Source of the DNA: Candidatus Methylomirabilota bacterium
GTDB lineage: Bacteria > Methylomirabilota > Methylomirabilia > Rokubacteriales > CSP1-6
Reading direction: 5' to 3'
DNA: 64,000 nt
Assembly (NCBI GenBank): GCA_035708525.1
Contig: DASSSH010000026.1
Location: 478-64,477 of the forward strand
The notes below the pieces were generated by a model. That model ran no database searches. It was not told the origin of the DNA and saw only the letters and a program-made list of their open reading frames with translations. The translations under genes and the position numbers were made by a program. Below are positions 1 through 60,016 of this stretch, piece after piece. Each line of letters starts with the position of its first letter. Position 1 is the first letter of the stretch.

Positions 1-252
1 CTTTACGAAAAAGGCCATACCTTGCTCTCGGTCTTCATGGTCCCGGCCTCGGCGGCCGGCACCGAGCTGACGGGCAAGCGCGTTCCGTATGGGGGTCGCG
101 AGTACATCACGGCGGAGCGCAAGGGCTACCGCACGGTGTCGTGGACCGATGGGCAGACGGTCTACGGACTGGTGTCTCTCCTCGACTACGATGCTCTGCT
201 CGAGTGTGCCGATCGGCTCCGCGCTGAACGCGCACGCGAAGCGCGGCTGTAG
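1..252 (+). CDS. anti-sigma factor, C-terminal fragment (5' end lies outside the window)
   Basis: Frame 1 is open from the window edge to TAG 250-252. The motif GYRTVSWTDGQTVYGLVSLLDYDALLECADRL resembles the C-terminal end of zf-HC2/ChrR-type anti-sigma factors. Confidence 0.5.
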   Translation, partial: LYEKGHTLLSVFMVPASAAGTELTGKRVPYGGREYITAERKGYRTVSWTDGQTVYGLVSLLDYDALLECADRLRAERAREARL

Positions 253-262
253 CAGTTGCCCG

Positions 263-1366
263 ATGGGGGCTCGGCTCGCGCGGCTCGGGCTCTTGGCGGT
301 GTTGGGCTGCCTGGCCGCCGTCGACAGCTCCCATGCCGGGGCCTTGCGGACCGACCTCAGCAAGGCCTTGGTCCCGTTGGACGAGATCGTCTCGGGCGGC
401 CCTCCCCCCGATGGCATTCCTGCGATCGATCGGCCGAGCTTCGTGACACTGGCCGCGGCCGATGCCTGGCTCAAGCCCAAGGAGCCGGTGGTGGCGCTTG
501 AGATCAGCGGCGACGCCCGGGCCTACCCCCTCCAGATTCTCATGTGGCACGAGATCGTCAACGACACGGTGGGCGGCAGGCCCGTCACCGTCACCTACTG
601 CCCGCTCTGCAACTCGGGGCTCGTCTTCGACCGCGTCGTGGGTGGCGTCACGCTCGACTTCGGCACCTCGGGCAAGCTCTACAAGAGCGATCTGGTCATG
701 TACGATCGGCAGAGTCATTCGCTCTGGGCCCAGATGGAGGGCCGGGCCATCGTCGGTGAGCGGGCGGGGACGCGTCTGGGCCTGATTCCCGCCAACACCG
801 TCGCCTACGAGGATTTCAAGGCGATCTATCCGGGTGGGAAGGTGTTGTCCCGGGAGACGGGCCACGCACGCTCCTACGGACGCAACCCCTATGAGGCCTA
901 CGACCGCCCCGATTCGTCCCCCTTCCTCCTGCAAGGCACGGCCGACCGGCGGCGCCCGCCCAAGGAGCGTGTGGTGGGGGTCCTCATGAGCGGGATGCCC
1001 CGGGCCTATCCGTGGTCGGTGCTCGAGAAGCAGGGCGTACTCCATGACACACTGGGCGGTGAGCCGCTGGTGATCTTCCATCGTCCAGGTGCGCTGTCCG
1101 CGCTGGATGATTCGCGCATGGAACAGTCCCGCGCGATCGGCGCTACGGCCGTGTTCAGCTCTGTGCTGGCTGGCAAGCTACTGACCTTCGAGCGGGTGGC
1201 CGATGGATTCCGCGACAAACAGACCAGCAGCCTCTGGAGCCTGCTGGGCTACGCGACCAAGGGTCCGCTGGCCGGCAAGCGGCTTAAACCGATCCAGCAC
1301 GTGGATGCGTTCTGGTTCGCCTGGGCCGCGTTCAACCCCGCGACCTCGGTCTACGTCACACCGTGA
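263..1366 (+). CDS. DUF3179 domain-containing secreted protein
   Basis: ATG 263 gives the signal peptide MGARLARLGLLAVLGCLAAVDSSHA. DUF3179 motifs are present: DGIPAIDRPSF, YPLQILMWHEIVNDTVGG, VTYCPLCNSG and SGKLYKSDLVMYDRQSHSLW. Confidence 0.85.
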   Translation: MGARLARLGLLAVLGCLAAVDSSHAGALRTDLSKALVPLDEIVSGGPPPDGIPAIDRPSFVTLAAADAWLKPKEPVVALEISGDARAYPLQILMWHEIVNDTVGGRPVTVTYCPLCNSGLVFDRVVGGVTLDFGTSGKLYKSDLVMYDRQSHSLWAQMEGRAIVGERAGTRLGLIPANTVAYEDFKAIYPGGKVLSRETGHARSYGRNPYEAYDRPDSSPFLLQGTADRRRPPKERVVGVLMSGMPRAYPWSVLEKQGVLHDTLGGEPLVIFHRPGALSALDDSRMEQSRAIGATAVFSSVLAGKLLTFERVADGFRDKQTSSLWSLLGYATKGPLAGKRLKPIQHVDAFWFAWAAFNPATSVYVTP

Positions 1367-1956
1367 CCGCCCTCGAGGAGCTCGCCGCCCTGCTCGCAGA
1401 GCTCGAGCGGGCGCGCACATCCATCATGGCCCTGGCGCGTGGCAACTGCGCGCAGGAGCCCTGGAGGCTCTATCCGGGCGAATACGGGATCTTCGACCGC
1501 AAGACGCATAGCCAGTTCTACTACCACTCGCACGAAGGTGCCCGGCACGAGGCCGGCCACTTTCACACTGTCCGCCTCTTCACCGATCGCTCGGTGCATC
1601 TGGTGGCCATCTCCATGGCCGAGACCGGCTGGCCGCAGGCGCTGTTCACCGTCAACGGTTGGGCCATCGGTGACGCCTGGGAACCACCGGAGACGCTCAA
1701 GCAATACATTCGCCGATTCCACATCGGGCCGGGCCGAGGGCCCGCGCCACTGGTCCGGTTCATCAACCTGATGTTTGAGGCCTTCACCCTCGAAATGGAG
1801 CAGCTTCAGGACGACAAGGAGCGTGTGCTGCGGGCTTACTGCGCCGCCCATCCGGGGAAGGATCCCCTCCAAGACTGGTCGCTGGAGATCCTGAGCCGGG
1901 TCGAGATCGACATGAAGGCCCGTCTCGCCGGGCCGGCAGAAGTGGTCAGGCCTTGA
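1363..1956 (+). CDS. hypothetical protein with a His-rich motif (YYHSHEGARHEAGHFH), possibly metal-binding
   Basis: The GTG start overlaps the upstream stop (GTGA at 1363-1366). Third-position GC is coding-like. The protein sits between the DUF3179 gene and the TlpA-like gene, with overlapping junctions on both sides. Confidence 0.65.
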   Translation: MTALEELAALLAELERARTSIMALARGNCAQEPWRLYPGEYGIFDRKTHSQFYYHSHEGARHEAGHFHTVRLFTDRSVHLVAISMAETGWPQALFTVNGWAIGDAWEPPETLKQYIRRFHIGPGRGPAPLVRFINLMFEAFTLEMEQLQDDKERVLRAYCAAHPGKDPLQDWSLEILSRVEIDMKARLAGPAEVVRP

Positions 1957-2516
1957 TCCGCGCACGGATCCTCGCCGTGCTCGTCGGGGTGGTCGCGCTC
2001 GGCGGGGTCTTGCAAGTGGCCGCCGTGGGCCCGGATCCGACGCTCGGGGCGGATCTCTGGCGGGTCGCAGGCATCGCGCGGGCCGGTCGCCAGGTCGCCG
2101 CGCCGTCGTTCCAGCTGCAGGATATCGCCGGGAACCGGGTCGAGCTGCGCCAGCTCCGCGGGCGAATCGTGCTGGTCTACTTCTGGGGCTCGTGGTGACC
2201 GCACTGCACGAGGGAGTTGCCCTCGGTGGATGGGCTGCACGAGAAGCTGGCGCGAGAAGGGCTCACCGTTCTCCTCGTGAACATCGGGGAGACCCGTGAG
2301 ACCGTGGTCCGGGCCCTGGCGTCGCGCCGCTACACAGCCCCCGTGTTCCTCGACTCGAACGGCAAGACCAGCGAGTCCTATCGCGTCGCAGGCACCCCCA
2401 CGGTGTTCATCATCGGTCGGGACGGGATGATCCTCGGGAGTGCCGTGGGCCCTGGCCCCTGGGCGGAACCGGCCGGGCGCGCGCTGCTCGAAGCGCTGCT
2501 CCGCGGTCGAACGTAA
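1953..2516 (+). CDS. TlpA/ResA-like thiol:disulfide oxidoreductase, selenocysteine-containing (UGA 2196-2198 read as Sec)
   Basis: ORFs 1953..2198 and 2217..2516 are in the same frame. The junction reads VLVYFWGSW-[TGA]-PHC-TRELPSV, the thioredoxin-fold WCxxC site. There is an N-terminal membrane anchor and a C-terminal AGTPTVFIIGRDG motif. The TTG start overlaps the upstream TGA (TTGA). Confidence 0.8.
2204..2229 (+). promoter_or_regulatory. putative bacterial SECIS hairpin for UGA 2196
   Basis: CGAGGG-AGUUG-CCCUCG at 2209-2225. It can be extended by 4 pairs with a bulged A at 2208. The loop A lies 19 nt from the U of UGA. Confidence 0.6.
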
Positions 2517-2560
2517 GCAGAGGTCATGCCGATTCCGCCGGTCTCCTTGCACCGCGCGGT

Positions 2561-3514
2561 TCAGTCGCCGGCCGCGCGGAATCCTCGCCAGGCGAGCCGG
2601 TGCTTCCGGAAAAAGAACGCGAGCATGGCGACGGCGGATAGTAGATTACCGATCAGAATGGTCCACCAGGCCAACGCTTCCAGCAGCCACTCGGCCAGCG
2701 CCGCGACCAACCCGATGAAGAAGACCTCGAAGCAGCAGAAGAGCATGACGAAGGCGTAGAGCAGGCGCGGCTCGCGGTCGGCCAGCGCCAGCAGTCCTGC
2801 GGCGGCCCAGCCGAAGGCAACGAAGGCTGCGCCGTGCACCACGGTGTACTTGGCGACGGCCGGCACCGTGACGGTCAGGGCATTGACGTCCCGTAGTCCG
2901 TCGAAAAGCGCGGCGCCGAGCAAGGCCGGAGTGCGCAATGGCCGGCCAGCCGCCAAGTCGTAGAGCAGAAACCACACCGCCACCGTCACCGCGCCCAGCA
3001 GCCCGGCCATGAAGCCTTCCCTAGTCGCGCCCGTCCATGGGCCCAGCAGCGCGCGTCCGAGCGCGCGATGCCCGACGAAAAAGTACGCGAGCATCCCGGC
3101 GGCGGCGAGCAGATTGGCCGCCAAGATTGCCCACCAAGCCACTTCGGTCAGGACCGGGTGAGCCAGCCAGACCACGAGAGCGAGAGACAAGACCTCGAAG
3201 CACATGAGACCGATGAAGAGCACGAGCAGCCGGCTCGGGTGAGTTTGGGCTGAGGCGATGAGATACGCGATCAGCACCCCGATCATCGCGAAGACGACGC
3301 CGTGCAGCACCGTGTATTGGAGGACCAGGCCGGGCGACGTGGACACCGCCCCAGGGTCGGTCGCGCCCTGGAGCGCGGCAGCGCCTAGCACAGCGGGCGT
3401 GCGAAAGGGATGCCCGCGCGCCGCATCAAGGATCAAAAACCATACGGCGACGACTGCGGCGCCGATCATGCCGCCGATGACGCCTTCACGAACGAAGCGG
3501 TGTGAGAGCGCCAT
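2561..3514 (-). CDS. integral membrane protein with an internal duplication (two ~150-aa halves)
   Basis: ATG 3514 is preceded by an AGGAGG ribosome-binding site (RBS). Both halves share REG..G..GA..VAVWFL..D.A.G.P.RTPA.LGAA ... CFEV ... WW.IL..NLL.A..MLA.FF..HR. Confidence 0.75.
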   Translation of the reverse strand: MALSHRFVREGVIGGMIGAAVVAVWFLILDAARGHPFRTPAVLGAAALQGATDPGAVSTSPGLVLQYTVLHGVVFAMIGVLIAYLIASAQTHPSRLLVLFIGLMCFEVLSLALVVWLAHPVLTEVAWWAILAANLLAAAGMLAYFFVGHRALGRALLGPWTGATREGFMAGLLGAVTVAVWFLLYDLAAGRPLRTPALLGAALFDGLRDVNALTVTVPAVAKYTVVHGAAFVAFGWAAAGLLALADREPRLLYAFVMLFCCFEVFFIGLVAALAEWLLEALAWWTILIGNLLSAVAMLAFFFRKHRLAWRGFRAAGD

Positions 3515-3668
3515 TGAGCCTCCTGTGTTGGTGCCCAGGGCGATGTCGGATGGGACCGCTAACAAAACAGGAAACCGGGTGATCTACCTACTTATTCCTC
3601 TGAAAACCGAGCGCCGGCTGGGAATACGAGCGCCGCCAGGGGAGTTGTCCGGATGAGGAGGACGAGCC

Positions 3669-3788
3669 ATGAAGATCCTACCGTTGGTTGCCCTGTTCCT
3701 GGCTGTCGCGGCTCCCGTTTATGCTTTTCACGACAAGCCCCCGGACATCCAGGCCCCCCTCAGCGCGGACGATATCCAGGCTCCGTGA
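3669..3788 (+). CDS. small secreted peptide (39 aa), hypothetical
   Basis: A GAGGAGGA RBS lies about 7 nt upstream. The product is MKILPLVALFLAVAAPVYA-FHDKPPDIQAPLSADDIQAP, a signal peptide followed by a DIQAP repeat. It is too short for the ORF track. Confidence 0.3.
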   Translation: MKILPLVALFLAVAAPVYAFHDKPPDIQAPLSADDIQAP

Positions 3789-3851
3789 GGTCGAGTTGCC
3801 TTCGCACCGGATCTCCCGGGTGGCGTTTGTTCGCGTGCCCACGCGAATGTT

Positions 3852-4190
3852 TCAAGACGCGGAGCGGGCCAGATACGAGGTAAGCCAGTAGAGCGAGATG
3901 TAGACGATGACCATCGCGACGGCCACGGTGAGGAGCAGATGCCATTGGGCTTGCGCGCCGCGCAGACTGCAGGCGTTCCGGCGGCGCAGGATGGCCATCA
4001 CGCCTAGCACGGCCAAGATAAGGGCCGCGCCGCGGAAATACCACCCGTAGCCGTAGTAGAGAGTGTTGCCCAGGCTGATCGCGAAGGACGCCGAGGCGAG
4101 CCCAAGCAGGACCAACACGACGGGGCTCACGCAGCAGGAGATCCCGAGCAGGCCAGCCAGCAGGCCGAGCTTGAGACCCGTCTTGTCCAT
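3852..4190 (-). CDS. small membrane protein with a vicinal Cys-Cys in TM1 (MerT/MerF-like)
   Basis: MDKTGLKLGLLAGLLGISCCVSPVVLVLLG followed by further TM helices. The ATG overlaps the DUF547 stop (TGATG at 4188-4192). Confidence 0.6.
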   Translation of the reverse strand: MDKTGLKLGLLAGLLGISCCVSPVVLVLLGLASASFAISLGNTLYYGYGWYFRGAALILAVLGVMAILRRRNACSLRGAQAQWHLLLTVAVAMVIVYISLYWLTSYLARSAS

Positions 4191-4870
4191 CAGCGCAATC
4201 CCGCGGAATGGCTCGCCGATCGCTCCGGCAGCTGCCAGTCGTACTCCCGCCAGGTGACGCGGTCGAGCCCGCCTGCGAGGACCGTCCGCCTGACCGGACC
4301 GTCCTCGAGGTGGTCGGCGAGGAAGCCCACGAGCCCGCCTGGCCACTGGGCGAAGTCGGCGGCGAACCATTGGAAGATGGGCGTGGCGACCAACCGCTCC
4401 TTGTCCAGCGTCACCTCCCGGGTCACGAAGCCCCGCGTCGCCGCGTCGAGCTGGTCGTGCACGTGGACGCTGTCGTAGTGCTGCAGGGGCGGGCACGATC
4501 GCGCGCCGCAGTCGATGGCGAAGTGGATCCGGGGATCAAGGTCCGATATCACGTGCGCCAGACGCGGGTCGTCAGGCGAGAACGGTGGCGCGCCCGAGAG
4601 CGGATTGGGCCGGTTGCCGCGGAGCACCCCATGCTCGATGTCGTTGGCCGAGAACTCCAGCCCGCCGATGCGAGCGCGAATACGGTCGAAGAAGTCCGGG
4701 ACCTCCCAGACCGTCTGCCGGATCCCGAGGGCTGCGAGGCCCCCGGTGACCAAATCATTGTAGGCGTTGATCCAGAACGCGAGCCGCTCCCCACGTGTCG
4801 CGAGGCCGGCGAGCGGCGGGGCGGAAAGGTCCCTCAGTACCACGGCAACCATTAAACCAAACCGCGACAT
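4190..4870 (-). CDS. DUF547 domain-containing protein
   Basis: Motifs ERLAFWINAYN, IEHGVLRGNRPNP and DPRIHFAIDCGARSCPPL are typical of DUF547. Confidence 0.8.
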   Translation of the reverse strand: MSRFGLMVAVVLRDLSAPPLAGLATRGERLAFWINAYNDLVTGGLAALGIRQTVWEVPDFFDRIRARIGGLEFSANDIEHGVLRGNRPNPLSGAPPFSPDDPRLAHVISDLDPRIHFAIDCGARSCPPLQHYDSVHVHDQLDAATRGFVTREVTLDKERLVATPIFQWFAADFAQWPGGLVGFLADHLEDGPVRRTVLAGGLDRVTWREYDWQLPERSASHSAGLR

Positions 4871-4949
4871 CGCCTATTCCCGGTGCTTGACGGGCAGGCC
4901 ACGGTTGATGCGGTGCCGGCACGGGCGTGCGAGACGGGCGATTTTCCTC

Positions 4950-4980
4950 TTGACCTTGCCCCAAGGGGCCGGGTTTAGGC
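4950..4980 (+). promoter_or_regulatory. MerR/CueR-type promoter-operator (TTGACC, 19-bp spacer with dyad, TTAGGC)
   Basis: CTTGACCTTGCCCCAAGGGGCCGGGTTTAGGCT closely resembles, from memory, the E. coli copA promoter CTTGACCTTCCCCTTGCTGGAAGGTTTAACCT. The dyad ACCTTGCCCC/GGGGCCGGGT matches at 8 of 10 positions. The -10 element ends 7 nt before ATG 4988, so the transcript may be leaderless. Confidence 0.55.
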
Positions 4981-4987
4981 TGCGGTC

Positions 4988-5410
4988 ATGGGACGAGATG
5001 GCCTGCTGATCGGTGAGGTGGCGAAGCAGAGCGGCGCAAGCCGGAAGGCGCTGCGGCTGTATGAGACCGCGGGTATCCTTCCCGCTCCCCGCCGCACCGG
5101 GGCGGGCTATCGCGTGTACGGAGCCGACACGCTGGCGCTCCTCTCGTTCGTCCGGCGGGCGCAGCGACTCGGCTTCTCCCTGGAGGAGATCAAGGAGATC
5201 GTCGCCATCCGGCGAGCGGGACGCGCTCCATGCCCTCACGTCCGTGAGCTTGTCCGACGGAAGACCGAGGAACTCGACCGGCGGCTCACGGACCTGATGG
5301 AGGTGCGTGCTGGCCTTCGAGCCCTGGTGAAGGGCTGGCGCTCTTCGGGGCAGGGCCGCGCGGCGGTCTGCCCGCACATCGAGCGCGGCACTGGTCAGAG
5401 GGGGAGGTGA
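4988..5410 (+). CDS. MerR family (heavy-metal/CueR-like) transcriptional regulator
   Basis: N-terminal HTH LIGEVAKQSGASRKALRLYETAGILP..R...GYR.Y, a coiled-coil dimerisation helix, and two CPH motifs (APCPHV, VCPHIE). Confidence 0.9.
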   Translation: MGRDGLLIGEVAKQSGASRKALRLYETAGILPAPRRTGAGYRVYGADTLALLSFVRRAQRLGFSLEEIKEIVAIRRAGRAPCPHVRELVRRKTEELDRRLTDLMEVRAGLRALVKGWRSSGQGRAAVCPHIERGTGQRGR

Positions 5411-5416
5411 GAAGTG

Positions 5417-5557
5417 ATGCCTTGGAAGAAGGGTGAGGTGTACAGGTGCCCTGACCCCAACTGCGGGTGTGAGGTCGCGGTGACGAGAGAGCCGAGGCCT
5501 GGGATGGGAGGCGATCGGGCACCGGCCTGCTGCTGCGGCAAGACCATGACGAAGTAG
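5417..5557 (+). CDS. small Cys-rich desulforedoxin-like metal-binding protein (46 aa)
   Basis: MPWKKGEVYRCPDPNCGCEVAVT...APACCCGKTMTK matches the Dx pattern VY.C..CG..V.V...CCG..M. A GGGGGAGG RBS is present. The gene is too short for the ORF track. Confidence 0.55.
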   Translation: MPWKKGEVYRCPDPNCGCEVAVTREPRPGMGGDRAPACCCGKTMTK

Positions 5558-5583
5558 AACGTCCAAACAAGGAGGGATAGAGG

Positions 5584-5754
5584 ATGGACAGCCTGAAGAT
5601 GTCGCTGTGCCCGGCGTGTACCGCGTGCCCTGAAGTCGAGATCGCCGGGGACGAGGTCAGGATCGGCGAAACCGGCAACCTTGCCGTGCTGAAGCGAGAC
5701 GAATGGAACGTGCTGGTAGACCTGATCCAGGCGGGCCAGCTGTCGAAGCTCTGA
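5584..5754 (+). CDS. small hypothetical protein with a CPACTACP motif (56 aa)
   Basis: An AAGGAGGG RBS lies 8 nt upstream. The product is MDSLKMSLCPACTACPEVEIAGDEVRIGETGNLAVLKRDEWNVLVDLIQAGQLSKL, with high third-position GC. Confidence 0.45.
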   Translation: MDSLKMSLCPACTACPEVEIAGDEVRIGETGNLAVLKRDEWNVLVDLIQAGQLSKL

Positions 5755-5985
5755 TCAGCACCGACCTCCAACGTCCCGCGCGGGTCACCGGTCGAAGAGG
5801 CCGGTGGCCCGCAGGTCGTTTCAGGCCTGGGGTTGGCCCATCGCGTAAAATGCCTTCACCGCGGCCGCGGCCCGGCGCAGAGGTGGCCAAGGCCAGGGCC
5901 TGTGGGAATAAGTCGCCGAGGAGCTGTGTTATGTGTGTTGGTGTACACGCCGGGCGGCCCCCGGAAGACGAGAAAGGAGCCGAGA

Positions 5986-6480
5986 ATGGCGAGAGCGGGA
6001 AATCGAATCCTCGACAGCGGCGAGGTGCTGCCGACAATCGCCATGGACACCGTTGCCCATGAGCGAATCAGCGCGCCAGAGTGCTTCGGAAGCGGCTGGG
6101 GGGTCTTCCTCATCTACCGCGCCCACTGGTGACCATACTGCAAGCAGCAGTTAGCTGCCTTCGAGCGTGCGCTGCCAAAACTCCAGGATGAAGGGATTAC
6201 CGTCGTAGGGGCGTCCACTGACGCGCTGGAAAAGGCCAAAGAGACAGTAAGAGAACACGCCCTCTCCTTCCCCATCGGCTATGGGCTCCCGCTCCGAGAG
6301 ACTGCGGCAACCCTAGGCACGTTCTACGAGGAGCGCCGAGGCATCTTGCAGTCTACCGGGTTCTTGATCAAGCCGGACAAGACGATCGCGGTCGCGCAGT
6401 ACAGCTCAGGACCCATCGGTCGCTTGGTCTGGCAGGACGTCCTCGGTCTGGTTCAGTTCTATAAGAAGCAGGCGAAATAG
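5986..6480 (+). CDS. peroxiredoxin-like (AhpC/TSA, PRX-like2-type) selenoprotein (UGA 6130-6132 read as Sec)
   Basis: A GAAAGGAG RBS precedes ATG 5986. The junction reads GVFLIYRAHW-[TGA]-PYC-KQQLAAFERALPKLQDEGITVVGASTD. The frame then stays open for 115 more codons to TAG 6478-6480 (…FPIGYGLP…SGPIGRL…). The downstream half is absent from the ORF track because it has no start codon. Confidence 0.8.
6142..6161 (+). promoter_or_regulatory. putative bacterial SECIS hairpin for UGA 6130
   Basis: AAGCAGC-AGUUA-GCUGC(C)UU, a stem with a bulged C. The loop A at 6149 lies 19 nt from the U of UGA. Confidence 0.55.
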
Positions 6481-6517
6481 CGATTCGGCCTACGAACCGG
6501 AGGCACGGGACCTGCTC

Positions 6518-6862
6518 ATGACCGCGATGGAGTGGGACTGCTGCCGGCACGGGGAAGAGACCCGTCTGACGTTTCAGTTCGCAGGTCGATCGGGGTCGGT
6601 TCGCAAATGCTGGTGGTGTGCGCTCGTGCACCCGCCCATGCTCTGGCGGTCCGTGAAGATTGGGCTTGTGGTAGGGAGCGTTCTGGCCGCCATCAACCAT
6701 GGCGGCGTCCTGGTGAGTGGCGAGCTGACCTCTGGCGTAGCCTGGAAGATCGGGTTGACCTATCTAGTGCCCTTTGTCGTGGCAACGTGGAGCGCCCTCG
6801 CGGCGAGTCGGATCTCCTCCGTCGCCGAGCCACGCGGTCGAGGCTCGGGTCCGGGCACATAA
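6518..6862 (+). CDS. NrtS-like (nitrate/nitrite transporter NrtS family) small membrane protein with a Cys-rich N-terminal extension
   Basis: The core LWRSVKIGLVVGSVLAAINHGGVLVSGELTSGVAWKIGLTYLVPFVVATWSAL matches NrtS-family sequences. The N-terminus carries CC..H and CWWC. Confidence 0.65.
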   Translation: MTAMEWDCCRHGEETRLTFQFAGRSGSVRKCWWCALVHPPMLWRSVKIGLVVGSVLAAINHGGVLVSGELTSGVAWKIGLTYLVPFVVATWSALAASRISSVAEPRGRGSGPGT

Positions 6863-6958
6863 GGTCATGACGGAGAAACCTCATCGAAGAGAGTTGACGC
6901 CGCCGTGACAAACCAGCGCAGTGTCCGTGGGAGGATGGAGCACAAAGGAGGTTTCGCG

Positions 6959-7441
6959 ATGCGACGCGGACTGATCGCGGCAGTCCTCTTGGGCCTGGGC
7001 GCGACCGTGAGCTGGGCCGCGACGCCGGCCCCGACCTTCATCTTGCCCCTCATCCAGGGCGGTAAGGTGTTCGATTCCAAAGCCGAGATCGGCAGGCGGG
7101 TCCTGGTTGTCCGCTTCCAGGCCTCCTGGTGACCCACCTGCGTGCAGGAGTCTCCTGCATTCGAGAAAGCCTACCGGAAGTACAAGACGCGTGGCGTCGA
7201 GTTCGTGGGCGTCCAGGTGCAGGACGAGGAGGCTGACGCCCGGCGGTTCCTCAAGGCTCACCAGGCGACCTATCCCGCAGGGCTCGATCCCGATCTGGCT
7301 ATCGCCAAGCGCTTCGGCTACACAGCGACGCCTCTGACCGTCATCATTGACCGTCAGGGCAACATCGCCGCGCGCCAGTTCGGGCCGGCGGACGACACCT
7401 GGATCGCCGCCCACCTCGCCCCGTTGCTCAAGCCCAAGTAG
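6959..7441 (+). CDS. TlpA-like periplasmic thiol:disulfide oxidoreductase, selenocysteine-containing (UGA 7130-7132 read as Sec)
   Basis: AAAGGAGG RBS, then the signal peptide MRRGLIAAVLLGLGATVSWA. The junction reads RVLVVRFQASW-[TGA]-PTC-VQESPAFEKAYRKYKTRGVEFVGVQVQD. ORFs 6905..7132 and 7142..7441 are in the same frame. Confidence 0.8.
7142..7160 (+). promoter_or_regulatory. putative bacterial SECIS hairpin for UGA 7130
   Basis: UGCAGG-AGUCU-CCUGCA at 7143-7159. The loop A at 7149 lies 19 nt from the U of UGA. Confidence 0.6.
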
Positions 7442-7606: not shown

Positions 7607-8545
7607 TTATCCCGTGGAGTCTCGAATGGACGGCAGGACCTCGTGGGCGAAGCGCTCGATCTGCTCCAGCCGTTGTGGCCAGCGCGGCACCATGAATTGA
7701 AGCGCGATGTGCTCCACCCCGATCCTGCGATAGGCGGTGAGCGCCTTGACGAGCTGGGTCGAATCGCCGATCAATCGGTCCTCTTCCTGGGGCACGGGCT
7801 CCCGCGTGAGCTCGATGGGGAGACAACACGCCAGGCTGATCTGGCCGGGGTCTCTGCCTTGCTTGACCGCCCAGCTCCGCACGTTGTCGAACCGGGCGGC
7901 CAGCTCGCGCGGCGTGATCCGGACGAAGTAGGGAAACCACGCGTCTCCATACACGGCCGCCCGACGCTGGGCTCGCGCCCCTTCGCCGCCCACCCAGATC
8001 GGGATCCGGGGCCTCTGAAAGGGCTTCGGCGAAAAGCCGATCTCCTGAAAGCGGTAGTACCGGCCGTCGAACCGGGGCCGTTCTTCGGTCCAGACCCGGT
8101 TCACGACGTCGAGCTGTTCATCGGCGACGGCGCCACGGTCCGTGAACGGAGCCCCGAGCGCGCTGAACTCCTCGAGCATCCAGCCGACGCCCACCCCCAG
8201 GATCAAGCGCCCGAGTGAGAGGTGGTCGATCGTGGCGGCGATCTTGGCCCAGTAGAGAGGATGGCGATACGGCATGACCAGGACGCTCATCCCGAGCAGA
8301 ACCCGTCGCGTGCAGCCCGCCAGGAAGGCGAGACAGGTCAGCGCCTCCAGGAACGGAACATCAGGGGGAACGATGAAGCGCTGGTCCGCGCTGTACGGGT
8401 AGGGGGTCTTGATCTCCCACGGCGTGACGATCCGATCGGCGGCCCACACCGAGTCAAAGCCCAGGGCTTCGGCCCGATTCGCCGCCTCCGTGAGGACGCC
8501 GCTCGCGGCTCTGCCCGAGATCGGGAGAAAGACACCGACCTTCAT
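7607..8545 (-). CDS. LLM-class (luciferase-like) F420/flavin-dependent oxidoreductase
   Basis: MKVGVFLP..., LGFDSVWAADR, LGRLILGVGVGW, RPRIPIWVGG. Confidence 0.9.
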   Translation of the reverse strand: MKVGVFLPISGRAASGVLTEAANRAEALGFDSVWAADRIVTPWEIKTPYPYSADQRFIVPPDVPFLEALTCLAFLAGCTRRVLLGMSVLVMPYRHPLYWAKIAATIDHLSLGRLILGVGVGWMLEEFSALGAPFTDRGAVADEQLDVVNRVWTEERPRFDGRYYRFQEIGFSPKPFQRPRIPIWVGGEGARAQRRAAVYGDAWFPYFVRITPRELAARFDNVRSWAVKQGRDPGQISLACCLPIELTREPVPQEEDRLIGDSTQLVKALTAYRRIGVEHIALQFMVPRWPQRLEQIERFAHEVLPSIRDSTG

Positions 8546-8549
8546 TGGC

Positions 8550-9092
8550 CTAGACCGAGCTGACGCGGCGGGCGACGAACTCCACGTTGAGACGCCACGT
8601 GGCTCCACCATCGGCGGACACCTCACCCCGCCAGCGAAACGATTTCGGCGCCATCTCGGAGAAGCTCCATCGGATCAGACTCCCGTCGGGGCCGTTCCCT
8701 TCCTGGACGATGTCTTCACCCCGCTTGCGGCCGATCATCGTGAAGTACGTCTGCGATGCCGGATCCGTCCACTGGATGTGCCACGCGTCGATTCGTGGAT
8801 CGTAGACGCGCAACGTCGTGCCATAGTAGGCGCTGCTGGCCGCGGGATCCCCCTCGCGCTTTGCGCTGCGCGCCGGGACGATCCAGACATCCTGGATGGC
8901 GCGGCCTTCGAGCACCCATCCGAAGTGCCATTCGCCGGAGCTGCGACGCTTCGAGCCATCTTCCAGGTATCCGGTCACGTCGAGCTCCCAGGAGCCCACC
9001 AGCCAGCCGTAGAGGTCCATCTTGCCGGCGCGGTCTGCTGCCGGGCCGTTGGCGTGAAGAACGCCGAGAAATGGAGACGAGGGTGCGATCAT
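8550..9092 (-). CDS. hypothetical protein (DUF1579-like beta-barrel)
   Basis: AAGGAGG RBS. Motifs LVGSWELDVTGYLEDG...GEWHFGWVLEGRAIQDVW. The gene lies 4 nt upstream of the LLM gene. Confidence 0.7.
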   Translation of the reverse strand: MIAPSSPFLGVLHANGPAADRAGKMDLYGWLVGSWELDVTGYLEDGSKRRSSGEWHFGWVLEGRAIQDVWIVPARSAKREGDPAASSAYYGTTLRVYDPRIDAWHIQWTDPASQTYFTMIGRKRGEDIVQEGNGPDGSLIRWSFSEMAPKSFRWRGEVSADGGATWRLNVEFVARRVSSV

Positions 9093-15745: not shown

Positions 15746-16891
15746 CTATCGCCCGATTCCGGCGGTCTCGTCCACGTGGGCATCCTCCCGGAAATGCGGC
15801 ATGACCTCCCGCGAGAAGAGCTCCATCATCTCCAGCGTCTTCTCGTGACTGCCGCCGTTGAGGCCCGAGCACACGATCCCGGCCTGAAGCTCATCGGAGA
15901 AGACCGTGAGCTTGTCGCGCACCGTGGCGGGGCTGCCCACGATGATGTACCCCCCGGCCTCGAGATCGTCGAAGGTCAGCTCGGTGGGTGGCTTCGGCCG
16001 GTTGGCGAGCACGCGCCTCAGCGACGTCTCCGTCACGTAGCCCGGAGGCAGGTAAAACGGCGTTCGCATGCGGAGCCCCACGTTGTAGACCCAGAGGACG
16101 TTCTGCCGCGCGATCTCATAAGCCTTGGCGTCGTTCTCGGCCACCACGATGGGCAGGTTCACGGTGAGCTGGTAGCGGCTGGCCGTGTAGCCGGAACGCT
16201 CGCAGGCTTCCCGGTACTCGCCGTAGATCTGGGCGATGCGCTTGATGGGCGTGAAGACCATCAGATAGGGAAAGCGGCGCTGGGCCGCCCACTCGACCGT
16301 CTCGGTGCTGCCCTGGGACGGGCACCAGACGGGCGGATGCGGCTTCTGGAGCGGCCGGGGCCAGGGATTGACGTAGGGGTAGCGGAAGAAGCGGCCGTCA
16401 AAGGGGAACGGGCCTTCCTCGGTCCAGGCGCGGATGATCAGCTCGGCGGCCTCGTAGAAGCGCTCGCGCGAGTGAGTCGGGTTGACGGCCAGCGAGAAGT
16501 ACTCGGGGCCGATGCCGCGCACGAAGCCCGAGATCACGCGCCCCCCGGAGACCACATCCAGCATGGCGATCTCCTCGGCGACGCGGAGGGGATTCTCCCG
16601 GAGCGGGAGGCCATTGCCGAGGATGGCGATCTTCGCGCGGCTCGTCCTTCGCACCAGCATGGCCGCCATTACGTTGGGGCTCGGCATGGTGCCGTAGCAG
16701 TTCTGATGGTGCTCGTTGACGCACAGGCCATCCCAGCCGAGCCGCTCGGCGTATTCCAGCTGATCGAGGTACTGGTGGTACAGCCCGTGGCCGATCGCGG
16801 GGTCGTAATGGCGATTGGACAGCGTCACCCAGGACGACGGCTCCTCATGGTCCATCAGGTAGGGCATCAGATGGAAGTAGTAGAACTTCAC
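15746..16891 (-). CDS. LLM-class flavin-dependent oxidoreductase
   Basis: Luciferase-like motifs (GWDGLCVNEHH, PPVWCPSQGS). The ATG overlaps the upstream stop (ATGA). Confidence 0.9.
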   Translation of the reverse strand: MKFYYFHLMPYLMDHEEPSSWVTLSNRHYDPAIGHGLYHQYLDQLEYAERLGWDGLCVNEHHQNCYGTMPSPNVMAAMLVRRTSRAKIAILGNGLPLRENPLRVAEEIAMLDVVSGGRVISGFVRGIGPEYFSLAVNPTHSRERFYEAAELIIRAWTEEGPFPFDGRFFRYPYVNPWPRPLQKPHPPVWCPSQGSTETVEWAAQRRFPYLMVFTPIKRIAQIYGEYREACERSGYTASRYQLTVNLPIVVAENDAKAYEIARQNVLWVYNVGLRMRTPFYLPPGYVTETSLRRVLANRPKPPTELTFDDLEAGGYIIVGSPATVRDKLTVFSDELQAGIVCSGLNGGSHEKTLEMMELFSREVMPHFREDAHVDETAGIGR

Positions 16892-35504: not shown

Positions 35505-36344
35505 TCAGGTCTTGATGAGCTTGGCCCACTGGTCCAGGAGCGGCAGCACCGTGTCGCGCCCCTCCGGCGGCAGCCGCAGGATGGCCCGCGTGATCCCGGC
35601 CGTCGCGTAGGATTCGAGCGTCGCTTCGTCGGGCTTGGCGCCGAACACCGACACCGAGATGGTCTTCATGTCCCGTCCGGCTCTTGCCGCGCGGGCCCTG
35701 AGGTCCTGGAGCCCCGGCAGAATGGCCTCGTGCGCGCGCCCGCGCGGAAACCATCCGTCGCAGCAGTCGACCACGCGCTGGAGCGTGTGGGCGCTTTCGC
35801 CGCCCAGCAGGATCGGGGGATGGGGCTTCTGCTGGGGCTTGGGCCACGCCCAGATCTTGTCGAAGTTCACGAACCGGCCGTGAAACTCGGCCTCGTCCTT
35901 GGTCCAGATCTCCTTCATCGCGAGGATCTGCTCGCACAGCCGCTTGAAGCGCGTGGGGAAGTCCGTGCCATGGTGCTCCATCTCCTCGCGATTCCACCCA
36001 CCGCCCACGCCGAAAAGAAAGCGGCCGTTGGACAGGACGTCCAGGCTCGCGACCTCCTTGGCCGTGGTGATGGTGTCGCGCTCGATGAGCAGGCAGATGC
36101 CGGTGCCGATCTTGAGCCGCCGGGTAGCCGCGGCCGCCGCCATCAGCGAGACGAAGGGGTCGAAGGTATGGGAGTACTCCGTCGGGATCGGGCCGCCGCT
36201 GGGGAACGGGGTCCGCCGGCTGACCGGGATGTGGGTGTGCTCCGGGACGAAGAGCGACTCGAAGCCGCGCTCCTCGGCGGCCCGCGCCAGCTCGTCGGGG
36301 CGGATCGCGTAGTCCGTGGCGAAGATGCAGACGCCGATATCCAT
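35505..36344 (-). CDS. LLM-class F420-dependent oxidoreductase
   Basis: MDIGVCIFATDYAIRPDELARAAEERGFESLFVPEHTHIP, FLFGVGGGWNREE. Confidence 0.9.
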   Translation of the reverse strand: MDIGVCIFATDYAIRPDELARAAEERGFESLFVPEHTHIPVSRRTPFPSGGPIPTEYSHTFDPFVSLMAAAAATRRLKIGTGICLLIERDTITTAKEVASLDVLSNGRFLFGVGGGWNREEMEHHGTDFPTRFKRLCEQILAMKEIWTKDEAEFHGRFVNFDKIWAWPKPQQKPHPPILLGGESAHTLQRVVDCCDGWFPRGRAHEAILPGLQDLRARAARAGRDMKTISVSVFGAKPDEATLESYATAGITRAILRLPPEGRDTVLPLLDQWAKLIKT

Positions 36345-46120: not shown

Positions 46121-46693
46121 CTACTGGTCGCGGCCCATCGTGTAGAACTCGCGGTTCGGCCGCATGGCCGCCAGATTCGCCATGCGGTTGGACAGGTTGA
46201 AGAAGGCCGCGACCGCGCCGATGTCCCAGATGTCCGACTCGCTGAACCCGTGCCGCCGGAGCGGCTCGAAATCAGCCTCCTCGATGCCGGCCGAGTCGAG
46301 CGTGACCTTCACCGCGAAATCCAGCATGGCCCGCTGGCGCGGCGTGAGGTCCGCGTGGCGGTAGTTTGCGGTGATCTGGTCGGCGATCAGGGGGTGCTTC
46401 GACAGGACACGGAGCGCCGCTCCGTGAGCGACCGTTCAGTAGGCGCAGGAATTGGCGGCGCTGACAGCGACCACGATCATCTCGCGCTCGGCACGCGACA
46501 GCCCCGACTCCCCCCGCATGAGGACCTCATAGTAGTGGAAGAAGGCGCGGAAATGATCGGGCTTCCACGCGTACGCGAGAAAGACATTGGGGGTGAAGCC
46601 GGATTTCTTGGCGATCGCCTCGATGGCCTGCTTGAGGTCGGCGGGCAGGTCGGCGGGGTCGGCCACGGGGAAGCGGCTGATCGGCTCGGTCAT
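46121..46693 (-). CDS. AhpD-like peroxidase-related enzyme, selenocysteine-containing (UGA at 46438-46436 read as Sec)
   Basis: ORFs 46436..46786 and 46121..46327 are in the same frame. The junction reads EREMIVVAVSAANSCAY-[TGA]-TVAHGAAL, the CxxCxxxH AhpD core motif with TGA at the second Cys. ATG 46693 overlaps the upstream stop (ATGA). Confidence 0.82.
46408..46426 (-). promoter_or_regulatory. putative bacterial SECIS hairpin for UGA 46438
   Basis: CACGGAGC-GGC-GCUCCGUG, an 8-bp stem (or 7 bp with pentaloop CGGCG), starting 9 nt after the UGA. Confidence 0.6.
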
Positions 46694-47778
46694 GGCTCGG
46701 GCATCCTTTCGTATCGCCCGTACTCGCGGGCGGCCTCCATGAACCACCGCACGCAGTCGGGATTGGCGCGGGGGGGCAGTTCGCACGAGGTGGAGAGCAC
46801 GTAGCGAGAGCGACGTCCGACCGTGCCGAGGCAGCGCCGGACCTCGGCCTCGATCTCGGCCTTGGTGGCGCGCTCGAAGATGGTCACGTCCACGTTGCCG
46901 ATGGCCACGACCCCGCGCTGGTTGCCCAGCGTGACGAGTCGATCCAGCTGGTCCACCTGGAGCGCCGGGTCAGCCTGCTGGTCCAGGTCGATGGTGATGG
47001 CCACGAAGCCGGCGTCCATGAGGTCCTCGTGGATCTGGTGCGTCGTGCCGCAGATGTGCACCGTGGTGCCGACCTTCTTCGCCTTGAAGTAGTTGACCAG
47101 CTCCGTGTGGTACGGCTTGATGAACTCGCGGTATGTGTCGGGCCCGACCAGCGAGCAGGAGGCGGTCGGGTCCGAGTAGCTGAGGCCGATGCGGGTCTCG
47201 AGGACGGCGTCGCCGACGCGCTTGGCGTACTCCGTGGCGAAGCGCATCAGGTCGTGGACGAACGCGGGATCGTCGATCGTGTCGAGGCACATCAGCTCCG
47301 GGTTCCGCATCAGCATGGCGATGGTCCAGGGACCGACGTTGACGGAGCCGAGGGCGCTCGGGAGCCCGGCCGCGGAGAGGGCGGCGCACTGCTCGAGGAA
47401 CGCCGGCAGCCGACCGTCGCGCTTGGGGTCGGGGATCTCGAGGGTCGCCAGCTTGCTTTTGTCCTCCTGCAGGATGTGCCGGTCGATGGACGGCACCACG
47501 TAGTCGGAGTACTTGACGCGGCAGCCGGTGGCTTCGGCCTCCTTGGCCAGGTCGTTGAAGGCGATCATGATGTCGGGCTGGTACCGGTCGTAGTAGTTGA
47601 GCATCGCCTTCGCGGCCTTGGTGGGATTGGTGCAGTACTCTTCGATCGACAGGCCGTCGAGGCAGCCGGCGAACACGCCGGCGATCGGGTAGGCGGGCAC
47701 GCGATCGGCGAAGCTGCCCTTGTAGGCGGCGACGACGCGCTCGCGCGGCGTGTAGTGGGTCTTCTGCTCCTGCGGCAT
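46690..47778 (-). CDS. uroporphyrinogen decarboxylase (URO-D) family protein, MtaA/CmuA-like methyltransferase type
   Basis: URO-D fold motifs (RVPAYPI, FNDLAKEAEATGC, HICGTT). Confidence 0.85.
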   Translation of the reverse strand: MPQEQKTHYTPRERVVAAYKGSFADRVPAYPIAGVFAGCLDGLSIEEYCTNPTKAAKAMLNYYDRYQPDIMIAFNDLAKEAEATGCRVKYSDYVVPSIDRHILQEDKSKLATLEIPDPKRDGRLPAFLEQCAALSAAGLPSALGSVNVGPWTIAMLMRNPELMCLDTIDDPAFVHDLMRFATEYAKRVGDAVLETRIGLSYSDPTASCSLVGPDTYREFIKPYHTELVNYFKAKKVGTTVHICGTTHQIHEDLMDAGFVAITIDLDQQADPALQVDQLDRLVTLGNQRGVVAIGNVDVTIFERATKAEIEAEVRRCLGTVGRRSRYVLSTSCELPPRANPDCVRWFMEAAREYGRYERMPEP

Positions 47779-51470: not shown

Positions 51471-51635
51471 TCAGGCCGACCGCCGCCGGCGCGAGCCCTT
51501 TCCCTGCTTCACGTGCTTGAAGAACTCGATCTGCCGGAGCCGGCGCTCGGCCTCGGCGCGCGTGTCGTAGGACCCGAAGCTGCGCCCGGTCTTCTCCGAG
51601 AGAACCACGTACTTCCCGCCGCGCTTTCTGATCAT
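51471..51635 (-). CDS. small basic hypothetical protein (54 aa)
   Basis: [40 protein letters not shown]. The ATG overlaps the msrA stop (ATGA at 51632-51635). Confidence 0.45.
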
Positions 51636-52279
51636 GTCGTCACACCCGTCGGGCAGCGGAGGCCGGTGCCGCCGATGCCGCAATAGCCCCAGGGGTTCTT
51701 GGCCAGGTACTGCTGGTGGTAATCCTCGGCGTAGTGGAACTCCGGCGCCTCCCTGATCTCGGTGGTAATGGCGCCGAAGCCGCCATCGCTCAGCACGCGC
51801 TGGAAGGCGCGCCGCGAAGCCTCGGCGGCCTGGCGCTGGGCGTCGCCGTAGCAATAGATGGCCGAGCGGTATTGGGTGCCGGTGTCGTTGCCCTGGCGCA
51901 TGCCCTGGGTCGGGTCGTGGCTTTCCCAGAACACGCGCAGCAGGTCCTCGTAGGCGACCTTGTCCGGATCGAAGACGACCCGGACGCCCTCGGCGTGGCC
52001 CGTGAGGCCGCTGCACACTTCCTCGTAGGTGGGATTGGGCGTGAGTCCGCCCGCATATCCCACCGCGGTCGAGTAGACGCCGGGCAGCTCCCAGAATTTC
52101 CGCTCCGCTCCCCAGAAACAGCCCATCCCGAACAAGGCCAGCGCCGTTCCCTCAGGGAAGGGTGGCTCGAGGCGGGCGCCGCTCACGAAATGAGCGGCCG
52201 GGACCCGAACGCGCTCGGCCCGTCCGGGGAGCGCGTCGGCCGGCGAGGGGAGCGCGGCCTTCTTCGAGCGGAGCCACAT
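51632..52279 (-). CDS. msrA: peptide-methionine (S)-S-oxide reductase
   Basis: SPADALPGR...GMGCFWGAE...[23 protein letters not shown] chose the start [20 protein letters not shown] by analogy with E. coli [19 protein letters not shown]. Confidence 0.9.
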
Positions 52280-52328
52280 GGGGGGCACCTCCACCGGCGA
52301 GTATACCAGGCCCATCGAGCCGCGTGGG

Positions 52329-59452: not shown

Positions 59453-60016
59453 ATGCCCATCACACGGATGCTGGAGCTCGACGAGCTGGAGCCGGCCCTG
59501 CGCGAGGCGGCGGAGAAGTGGGGCGCCCAGGGCGGCAACGTGAACATGCACCGGGTATTCGGCCAGATGCCCGACTTCTTCAAGAAGTTCGTCGAGTTCT
59601 ACGGGCCGCTGGTCAACCACGGGCGCGTCCCCGTGCGCGTCAAGGAGCTGGCGCGCATCCGTGTGGCCAACCTCAACGAGTGCCACTACTGACAGAAGAC
59701 CCGCTACGCCTTGGCAAGGCGGGTGACGAGGGAAGCCGAGCTCGAGCGGGTGGACGACTTCGAGGCCGCTGAGTTCAGCCCGGCGGAGAAGGCCGTGCTG
59801 CGCTTCACCGAGGCTTTCTACCGCGACCACAAGACGGTTCCCGATTCGGTGTGGAGCGACTTGCGCCGGCACTACAGCGAGCCCGAGATCATCGAGCTCG
59901 CCTGGACGATCGCGGCCTACATCATGCTGGGCAAGCTGATCTACGCCTTCCGCATTCCGTACGGTGACGAGGGCAGCGGGCCCCGAGGCGGAGCCATCCC
60001 GGAGGAACGCCCATGA
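59453..60016 (+). CDS. carboxymuconolactone decarboxylase/AhpD-like family selenoprotein (UGA 59690-59692 read as Sec)
   Basis: ORFs 59453..59692 and 59711..60016 are in the same frame. The junction reads VKELARIRVANLNECHY-[TGA]-QKTRYAL, i.e. CxxC with TGA at the second Cys. The downstream FSPAEKAVLRFTEAF...EIIELAWTIA is CMD-like. The stop overlaps the next gene's start (ATGA). Confidence 0.78.
59707..59721 (+). promoter_or_regulatory. putative bacterial SECIS hairpin for UGA 59690
   Basis: CGCCUU-GGC-AAGGCG, starting 14 nt after the UGA. An alternative outer pairing is CCCGC/GCGGG (59700-59723). Confidence 0.5.

Follow-up and report, generated by a model that had tools for sequence, protein, structure and literature searches.

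In a 64 kb stretch of DNA (68% GC) assigned to a Candidatus Methylomirabilota bacterium, here referred to as the window, three genes for thioredoxin-fold proteins are each interrupted by an in-frame UGA, and behind each UGA a hairpin with a loop starting AGU is found at the same distance. This raises the question why three genes that differ so much in sequence share one hairpin geometry. The first-pass annotation of this DNA had read the hairpins as selenocysteine insertion sequence (SECIS) elements and had proposed them as a lineage-specific SECIS consensus. Judged from sequence comparison, the three hairpins are very probably bacterial SECIS elements that recode UGA as selenocysteine (Sec) in three distantly related oxidoreductases, one Prx-like and two TlpA-like. 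Their shared geometry would be anchored by the protein family and not by the lineage.

Three in-frame UGA codons and the hairpins behind them

The three genes, here named genes 1, 2 and 3, are listed in Table 1 together with their putative Sec codons and hairpins. Reading through the TGA results in proteins of 160–190 amino acids (aa) of the AhpC-TSA/Redoxin type, with 102–115 codons of open frame beyond the UGA. With cysteine (Cys) substituted for Sec, Pfam AhpC-TSA/Redoxin (PF00578 or PF08534) matched all three at E = 1e-18 to 1e-24; for gene 1 the values were 2.3e-24 (AhpC-TSA) and 7.7e-21 (Redoxin). The UGA of gene 1 is aligned to the first Cys of W-C-x-P-C in Cys-type relatives. In gene 3 the ATG at 6959 is the likely start within a frame that is open from 6905. 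Sec would be the first residue of U-x-x-C in each of the genes, as it is in Prx-like and Trx-like U-x-x-C selenoproteins. The window proteins share about 27% identity over 89 aa or are not alignable.

Direct reading of the coordinates confirmed the geometry given in the first-pass annotation, namely W-U-P-x-C motifs, the loops AGUUG, AGUUA and AGUCU and a loop A at +19, counted from the U of UGA, in 3/3 genes. The stems comprise 5–7 bp and the hairpins begin 10–11 nt after the UGA. In gene 1 a stem of 6 bp (CGAGGG/CCCUCG, 2209-2214/2220-2225) closes the loop AGUUG at 2215-2219. The stem of gene 2 has 5 bp (GCAGC/GCUGC, 6144-6148/6154-6158) with the loop AGUUA at 6149-6153, and 7 bp (6142-6161) are reached only by bulging one C on the 3' side. 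Gene 3 carries a stem of 7 bp (7142-7148/7154-7160), consisting of 6 Watson-Crick pairs and one G-U pair, and the loop AGUCU at 7149-7153. ViennaRNA reproduced the stems of genes 1–3 and closed the A-U of the gene 3 loop, resulting in a GUC triloop. The minimum free energies (MFE) of the 40 nt from the UGA were -17.3, -9.5 and -11.6 kcal/mol for genes 1, 2 and 3, respectively.

Table 1. Location of the predicted selenoprotein genes, their in-frame UGA codons and hairpins in the window, and of further candidates in related loci
Feature	Location	Strand	Basis or remark
Gene 1, TlpA-like thioredoxin-fold selenoprotein gene, W-U-P-H-C	1953..2516	+	read-through translation, Pfam
Gene 1, in-frame UGA (predicted Sec codon)	2196..2198	+	context tgg-TGA-ccg-cac-tgc
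Gene 1, predicted SECIS hairpin	2209..2225	+	17 nt, starts 10 nt after UGA
Gene 2, Prx-like (AhpC-TSA) selenoprotein gene, W-U-P-Y-C	5986..6480	+	read-through translation, Pfam
Gene 2, in-frame UGA (predicted Sec codon)	6130..6132	+	TGA kept in orthologs of L367, L368, L369
Gene 2, predicted SECIS hairpin	6142..6161	+	5 contiguous bp, 7 with bulged C
Gene 3, secreted TlpA/Redoxin-like selenoprotein gene, W-U-P-T-C	6959..7441	+	Redoxin 1.4e-24
Gene 3, in-frame UGA (predicted Sec codon)	7130..7132	+	sequence reading
Gene 3, predicted SECIS hairpin	7142..7160	+	GUGCAGG-AGUCU-CCUGCAU
AhpD-like (CMD family) selenoprotein gene, E-C-H-Y-U	59453..60016	+	CMD 6.3e-9; UGA 59690-59692
AhpD-like (CMD family) selenoprotein gene, S-C-A-Y-U	46121..46666	-	CMD 1.5e-16; UGA 46438-46436; start GTG 46666 inferred
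Candidate AhpD-like C-x-x-U gene	L367 9406	+	CGGU or CGGGAA loop (with L368 AhpD-like)
Candidate Grx-like T-U-Q-S-C gene adjoining merB/merF	L369 11989	+	AGUUU at +25
Candidate OsmC-like F-U-L-M-T and AhpD-like C-x-x-U genes	L368 7250, L368 8017	-	OsmC-like loop CGGUAU at +21

The hairpins were compared with the consensus that bSECISearch applies to bacterial SECIS elements in general (Zhang & Gladyshev 2005), as far as it is outlined in PMC13188914. There the model comprises a stem-loop immediately 3' of the UGA and inside the coding sequence, a loop of 3–9 nt, an upper stem of 4–16 bp, a G as the first or second loop base (mostly N1-G-[G|U]-N-N2), a spacing of 16–37 nt and an MFE of at most -7.5 kcal/mol. 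Genes 1–3 agree with every structural rule in that outline. Their loops of 5 nt are closed by stems of 6, 5 (7 with the bulge) and 7 bp, the free energies range from -9.5 to -17.3 kcal/mol, and the loops start A-G-U, with AGUCU fitting N1-G-U-N-N2 with N1 and N2 paired. In each gene exactly 16 nt (offsets +3 to +18) separate the UGA from the loop, the smallest spacing within the range of the model. The model also expects the UGA to stand opposite a Cys in homologs that lack the element, and this was found for 56 Cys-type motifs and for 12 Cys-type genes without the hairpin. Within the model thus outlined the three elements occupy a narrow corner, with the shortest spacing permitted, loops of 5 nt and, in most cases, two mismatched purines (A/G or A/A) as the first and last loop bases. 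In the literature compared, neither this minimum-spacing AGU pentaloop nor its link to W-U-P-x-C-x-x-[EQ]-L is described.

The element of E. coli fdhF was verified by its sequence in 5419/5426 E. coli genomes and has a GGUC loop at +21 with G-U at +22/+23. Its 17-nt upper hairpin lies 11 nt from the UGA, and a bulged U17 is needed for SelB binding (PMC8659212). The elements of the window resemble it in the 17-nt upper hairpin (gene 1), the short fixed distance from the UGA (10–11 nt here) and the G-U in a small apical loop. They differ in that the loop starts at +19 with G-U at +20/+21, in the lack of an extended lower stem and in the bulge, which is absent from genes 1 and 3 and is at most a C on the 3' side in gene 2. 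In 1-based numbering, where the fdhF type combines the bulged U17 with G23-U24 in a GGUC loop, genes 1–3 have G-U at 21/22 in an AGUYN loop. By analogy, the three elements would work like that of fdhF while standing outside its sequence type.

To assess how often this arrangement occurs by chance, all 1513 TGA triplets on both strands of the window were considered. Behind 15 of them a 5-nt loop at +19 is closed by 5 bp or more, and three of these loops start AGU, exactly at the sites of genes 1–3. Across the window, the related loci, the metagenome loci and viral background DNA, hairpins with an AGUYN pentaloop occur at a density of about 50–100 per Mb. A TGA at -19 precedes 3/6 of them in the window vs 5/250 in viral background DNA (p = 4e-4), 6/12 in the related loci and 61/103 in the metagenome loci. 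As 60 of these 61 are W-TGA-CC, AGUYN plus TGA at -19 as a mining pattern recovers almost only W-U-P-x-C genes. Synonymous recoding with the codon usage of the window yielded a stem of at least 5 bp with AGU at +19 with P = 1.5e-4, 2.5e-3 and 1.5e-2 for genes 1, 2 and 3, respectively. Additionally, the loop codons are rare in the window: UUG and UUA account for 4.4% and 0.5% of the Leu codons, respectively, and UCU for 4.6% of the Ser codons. Geometry and recoding thus support the SECIS-type reading of the first-pass annotation.

The first-pass annotation had also named hairpins of similar stability in shuffled sequence as a finding that would refute it. Against dinucleotide shuffles genes 1 and 3 reached z-scores of -2.55 and -2.00; by this measure gene 2, at -0.32, would be partly refuted. 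Free energy alone does not discriminate in sequence of 68% GC; what sets the hairpins apart is their geometry, the sequence of the loop and the choice of codons. MFE and z-score were rejected as a criterion, being non-discriminating in GC-rich coding DNA.

Another way to obtain full-length proteins would be reading of the UGA as Trp, Cys or Gly, by code variation or near-cognate decoding, with the hairpin as a generic stimulator of read-through. Two homologs of gene 2 with about 70% identity could be taken in this sense. P0001 has Trp at the Sec position, presumably because the source pipeline translated TGA as W, and P0002 has Ser (W-S-P-Y-C), possibly a true Ser variant or a sequencing difference. 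The lack of Sec machinery in the window points the same way. However, TGA terminates 22 of the 33 Pfam-supported open reading frames (ORFs), which indicates the standard genetic code, and reassignment of TGA in this genome was rejected on these grounds. Since TGA is an ordinary stop codon here, its recoding requires a signal of its own. The UGA invariably takes the place of the redox-active Cys in U-x-x-C or C-x-x-U motifs, the families concerned are catalogued as selenoproteins, and the loop has the G-U dinucleotide expected for recognition by SelB. We regard read-through by another amino acid as highly improbable.

Distribution of the AGU pentaloop among W-U-P-x-C genes

W-U-P-x-C genes were collected from metagenomes with the pattern hydrophobic-hydrophobic-x-[FY]-x-[AG]-x-W-TGA-P-x-C, in which nothing is specified 3' of the motif. 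At least 120 loci matched, and all counts refer to the first 120 listed, an unordered and non-random subset. Read-through ORFs were present in 110 of 120 loci. At +19 to +21 these 110 genes have AGU (66 genes), AGC (20) or AGG (8). Pentaloops at +19 on stems of 5 bp or longer were found in 61/110, and 57 of these loops start AGU, most commonly as AGUUG (31) or AGUUA (20). Of the metagenome genes, 100 have a SECIS-type hairpin, and in 63 of these the loop shows its first G at +20. Among the remaining forms are GGN triloops, seen at +24 in 12 genes, and tetraloops with the sequence GGUC, as in E. coli fdhF, at +20, +27 or +34.

One subgroup with the motif W-U-P-P-C-R-A-M-Y-P-H-E (L027, L071, L084, L092, L095 and L120) has no hairpin at +19. 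It carries a hairpin CACGAGC-GGUC-GCUCGUG instead, whose GGUC loop is of the E. coli type and lies at +34, close to the upper limit of the published spacing.

The 7-bp structure was examined for covariation in 103 distinct sequences, unselected for pairing. In raw counts that ignore phylogeny, 68.9% of the cells were paired vs 41% in shuffles and 39–47% with slid partners, and the covariation score was 0.62 vs 0.20; 0/500 shuffles reached the observed values. Each stem pair is represented by 3–6 pair types, and at least 90% of the sequences share the G at the wobble position +20. The two halves of the stem co-vary through amino acid changes, as in N-S-E-L-R-S (CUCCG/CGGAG), R-E-E-L-P-P (GGGAGG/CCUCCC) and R-R-Q-L-V-G (GCCGGC/GUCGGC).

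A covariance model of 21 nt, here named R1, was built from 47 metagenome hairpins with the UGA and the coding motif excluded. On both strands of the window (128 kb, filters off) its three best matches were 6141-6161 (23.8 bits), 2207-2227 (22.2 bits) and 7141-7161 (19.8 bits), followed by a match of 15.8 bits. A model of the hairpin alone thus ranked the three predicted Sec sites first to third in the whole search space. Rfam matched none of them: no family reached the gathering threshold in the window, and eight weak matches at E <= 10 between 2100 and 7300 lie outside the three hairpins.

If AGUYN at +19 were the SECIS consensus of this lineage, as the first-pass annotation had suggested, it should reflect the SelB of the lineage, be shared by its selenoprotein genes regardless of family and be rare elsewhere. 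All three W-U-P-x-C genes of the window share it, as do six more in three related loci, and one AGU-form metagenome match belongs to a Rokubacteria protein cluster. The two AhpD-like genes of the window are however different. Both are real CMD-family C-x-x-U genes with the GGC apexes at +20 and +23 that had been described before: one has an 8-bp hairpin at 46426-46408 with the apex at 46418-46416 (+20), the other a hairpin at about 59707-59721 with the apex at 59713-59715 (+23). In the related loci other apexes and offsets are used as well. The AhpD-like candidates of L367 and L368 have CGGU at +22 and CGGGAA at +23, and the DUF3179, OsmC-like and Grx-like genes have CGUGU, CGGUAU and, at +25, AGUUU, respectively.

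Moreover, the form is not restricted to relatives of the window. The 57 of 110 metagenome genes that carry it originate from soil, marine and freshwater habitats, with record names that indicate many different samples, at least one of them labelled marine. Their contigs range from 38 to 71% GC, with 9 below 50%, 48 below 65% and 9 at 65% or above; the breadth of occurrence is deduced from GC content and habitat. For the low-GC carriers only one protein cluster, that of Rokubacteria, is listed with an organism name. On this evidence a lineage consensus is very unlikely. Among the W-U-P-x-C genes of environmental bacteria at large, AGU at +19 is the most frequent SECIS form.

Position of the loop in relation to the encoded protein

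The position of the loop can be explained by the encoded protein. Codon +6, which encodes Glu or Gln (GAG/CAG), supplies A19 and G20 with its last two bases, and codon +7 starts with U21. In a set of 150 cluster representatives related to gene 1, 56 W-C-P-x-C motifs were found. These Cys-type motifs have Glu at +6 in 51/56 and Met at +7 in 42/56, with E-M-P in 40. Because Glu is so common at +6 in the Cys-type relatives, part of the loop identity reflects protein conservation. The earlier statement that the shared structure is not just amino acid conservation therefore holds for U21 and the stem but not for A19-G20.

At codon +7 the two types differ clearly. In the 20 Sec-type genes that combine Glu at +6 with Pro at +8, Met was never found at +7 (0/20 vs 42/56, p = 1.3e-9); the residue is Leu in 14, Ser in 2, Ala in 2 and Phe and Thr in one each. 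A single A-to-U change at +21 converts AUG into UUG, and the G-U dinucleotide arises with it. Where codon +7 of the 110 Sec-type ORFs stands for Leu, UUR is used in 62/85 (73%) vs 17% of 1729 other Leu codons of the same ORFs (p = 1.5e-27).

At the DNA level, 12 Cys-type TlpA-like genes of named bacteria with 31–72% GC, including Thermomicrobium, Ralstonia, Azospirillum, Bacillus, Mycobacteroides and E. coli, had no AGU at +19. Here AGAUG (5), AGCUG (2), AACUG and others were present, with stems of 0–3 bp. The hairpin was also absent from 180 viral W-C-P-x-C genes (0/180), a loose control since these are classical thioredoxins of low GC (37%). A narrower family-specific search of viral contigs gave 3 matches, and a search of the genome collection with the gene 3 protein found five distant relatives, all Cys-type. 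Of three plasmid matches that lacked an annotated feature and were suspected to be Sec-type, H41 is an ordinary Cys-type gene in a sparsely annotated record; no motif was recovered from H5 and H7.

These data also bear on the possibility that the hairpin is a passive by-product of the protein sequence around C-x-x-C and that the UGAs are pseudogene lesions or sequencing errors. The origin of A19-G20 from a conserved Glu/Gln codon (51/56 in Cys-type relatives) and free energies that are unexceptional for GC-rich coding sequence are consistent with it. Against it stand the recoding probabilities (1.5e-4 to 1.5e-2), the very rare loop codons (UUA 0.5%) and the excess of UUR (73% vs 17%). Furthermore, the stem was found in 0/12 and 0/180 Cys-type genes, its halves co-vary through amino acid changes, and TGA at the catalytic Cys position is kept in orthologs and in hundreds of homologs that exist only as fragments cut at the TGA. 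We give this explanation next to no credence.

The identical geometry most probably reflects the protein family, in which the Glu/Gln codon six after Sec/Cys fixes A19-G20, and not the lineage. The family fixes the possible loop position and selection at the RNA level does the rest, and AGU at +19 tracks the context W-U-P-x-C-x-x-[EQ]-[LSF].

The shared geometry may alternatively be due to common descent from one ancestral Sec-type thioredoxin-fold gene, without convergence on the position of the Glu codon. All carriers belong to one superfamily, and a few hairpin peptides recur (N-S-E-L-R-S, R-E-E-L-P-S and R-R-Q-L-V-G). However, the proteins of genes 1–3 have little in common (about 27% identity over 89 aa where an alignment is possible at all), and the nearest full-length relatives in the search of representatives are Cys-type with E-M-P. 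Other W-U-P-x-C genes use different hairpins (GGN at +24; GGUC at +20 or +34), which argues for repeated invention. Common descent is rather unlikely in our opinion, although we leave it some weight beside anchoring by the protein family.

How such an element would act can be outlined from what is established about Sec decoding. SelB with GTP and Sec-tRNASec would bind the apical G20-U21 of the approximately 17-nt hairpin via its C-terminal winged-helix domains. Once the UGA has entered the A site, the foot of the stem (+12 to +13) would lie just outside the mRNA entrance, and the tethered SelB would deliver Sec in competition with release factor 2 (RF2). The ribosome would then unwind the helix and read the stem as codons 4–10. 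The Glu/Gln codon would fix A19-G20, and the next codon would have to start with U, which would lead to the rare UUG, UUA or UCU where Cys-type genes have Met (AUG); codons 4-5 and 8-9 would co-vary so that the stem forms.

Based on these considerations we tentatively suggest that the AGUUR pentaloop at +19 is a discrete, protein-family-anchored subclass of bacterial SECIS elements, a proposal that we hold to be possible but somewhat short of an even chance. The conserved motif C-x-x-C-x-x-Glu-Met-Pro of TlpA-like and Prx-like proteins would then be pre-adapted, needing only one A-to-U change (AUG to UUG, +21) and a small number of substitutions that build the stem to become a working SECIS at minimum spacing. 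If so, pre-adaptation would help to explain the dominance of U-x-x-C thioredoxin-fold proteins in bacterial selenoproteomes and the recurrent conversion of Cys to Sec. The requirement of the RNA would visibly reshape the protein, by the change of Met to Leu, Ser or Phe and by co-varying residues at +4/+5 and +8/+9. Mis-calling of the loop UUG as a start would have produced truncated 'peroxiredoxin' records by the thousand, which could be mended with a simple model.

Several observations weigh against the interpretation of the hairpins as family-anchored SECIS elements. Hairpin stability of gene 2 is unexceptional against shuffles, and synonymous recodings of genes 2 and 3 fold about equally well. 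The covariation counts are raw, and the matched Cys-type control at the DNA level is small (n = 12). Most metagenome contigs are without taxonomy, so that the spread over lineages is judged from the range of GC content, the habitats and the divergence of the sequences, and some of the contigs are themselves Rokubacteria. Finally, tRNA search and Pfam survey found no selA, selB or selD and no tRNA of any kind, tRNA-Sec included, in the 64 kb of the window, and the capacity for Sec decoding is therefore inferred.

The current understanding of Sec decoding is left intact by these results. Three points are modestly new, namely that a conserved codon anchors the loop, that Leu (UUR) takes the place of Met at +7 and that start codons are wrongly assigned, as described below. 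A bacterial SECIS can be pinned codon-exactly by a conserved residue of the encoded protein, and the constraint of the RNA feeds back on the amino acids, with Met of the Cys-type replaced by Leu, Ser or Phe in the Sec-type.

Truncated homologs, related loci and neighbouring genes

Almost all of the best 120 homologs of gene 2 are fragments of 108–112 aa that represent the C-terminal two thirds of the protein. More than 110 close homologs are recorded solely as C-terminal fragments beginning at the loop Leu codon, because gene callers take its UUG as a start codon. This codon is TTA in the window (6151-6153) and TTG in orthologs, e.g. at L367 10001-10003, and P0015 begins 'MAAFEK' at exactly this TTG (L367 10001). 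Seven of ten predicted UUG-start fragments were found verbatim in the protein collection, and the same artefact was seen at the metagenome loci L019, L031, L036, L045, L067, L081 and L110. As far as the sequences tell, this is a systematic annotation error in which ORF starts are placed at a UUG inside the predicted SECIS loop. The closest named homolog of gene 2 belongs to a Candidatus Rokubacteria metagenome-assembled genome (MAG; GCA_016209635.1, 81% identity), which makes a Rokubacteria-like origin of the window probable.

About 56 kb of close relatives (L367, L368 and L369) were compared with the window. In their orthologs of genes 1 and 2 the TGA and the hairpin are retained, with small changes such as AGUUA to AGUUG or AGUUU and CGAGGG/CCCUCG to GGAGGG/CCCUCC. 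The ortholog of gene 1 in L369 is annotated as two pieces of 81 and 99 aa.

The Prx-like, Trx-like U-x-x-C and AhpD-like C-x-x-U families are catalogued in selenoproteome surveys (PMC2398784, Table 2), where a Prx-like gene adjoining an AhpD-like gene was already reported. OsmC-like (PMC2398784) and DUF3179 (PMC9312934) selenoproteins have been catalogued as well. With the same Pfam domains (PF00578, PF08534 and PF02627) and the same Sec motifs, the window genes represent new members from an uncultured, soil-type, high-GC bacterium. Five genes that could be annotated as fragments, three thioredoxin-fold and two AhpD-like, are thus predicted to encode full-length selenoproteins, and they mark the organism as a putative selenium user with a redox and metal-stress gene cluster. 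A read-through ORF finder based on GC content at third codon positions missed genes 1–3; relaxed and combined with a redox-motif filter, it still missed gene 2.

The DUF3179 gene of the window (89-1366, + strand), located upstream of gene 1, is Cys-type (Y-C-P-L-C). Its counterpart in the Rokubacteria MAG locus L367 (14021-15025) is split by an in-frame TGA at 14348 and carries W-U-P-L-C and a 7-bp hairpin with a CGUGU loop at +23. MsrA (51632-52315, - strand), whose family includes selenoproteins in some organisms, was rejected as a candidate since it is Cys-type (G-C-F-W-G).

The redox/metal-stress neighbourhood is conserved between the window (89-7441) and L369 (4017-13108). Its order is an extracytoplasmic function (ECF) sigma factor with anti-sigma factor (in L369), DUF3179, DUF6969, gene 1, DUF547, MerR (4988-5410), small Cys-rich ORFs (5414-5557 and 5584-5754) and gene 2. 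The start of gene 1 overlaps the stop of the DUF6969 gene. Gene 2 is followed by MerR-MerB-MerF (mercury resistance) in L369-L371 and by a membrane protein of 114 aa and gene 3 in the window.

On the minus strand, a URO-D-like gene (46690-47778) and an aldehyde:ferredoxin oxidoreductase gene with AFOR_N and AFOR_C domains (47974-49860), of a tungsten/molybdenum enzyme family, are located directly upstream of the AhpD-like gene at 46121-46666. Three paralogs of a luciferase-like monooxygenase are present at 7607-8626, 15746-16891 and 35505-36344, all on the minus strand. Additionally, P450, acyl-CoA dehydrogenase and enoyl-CoA hydratases were found in the window, which is typical of a soil heterotroph with a large genome.

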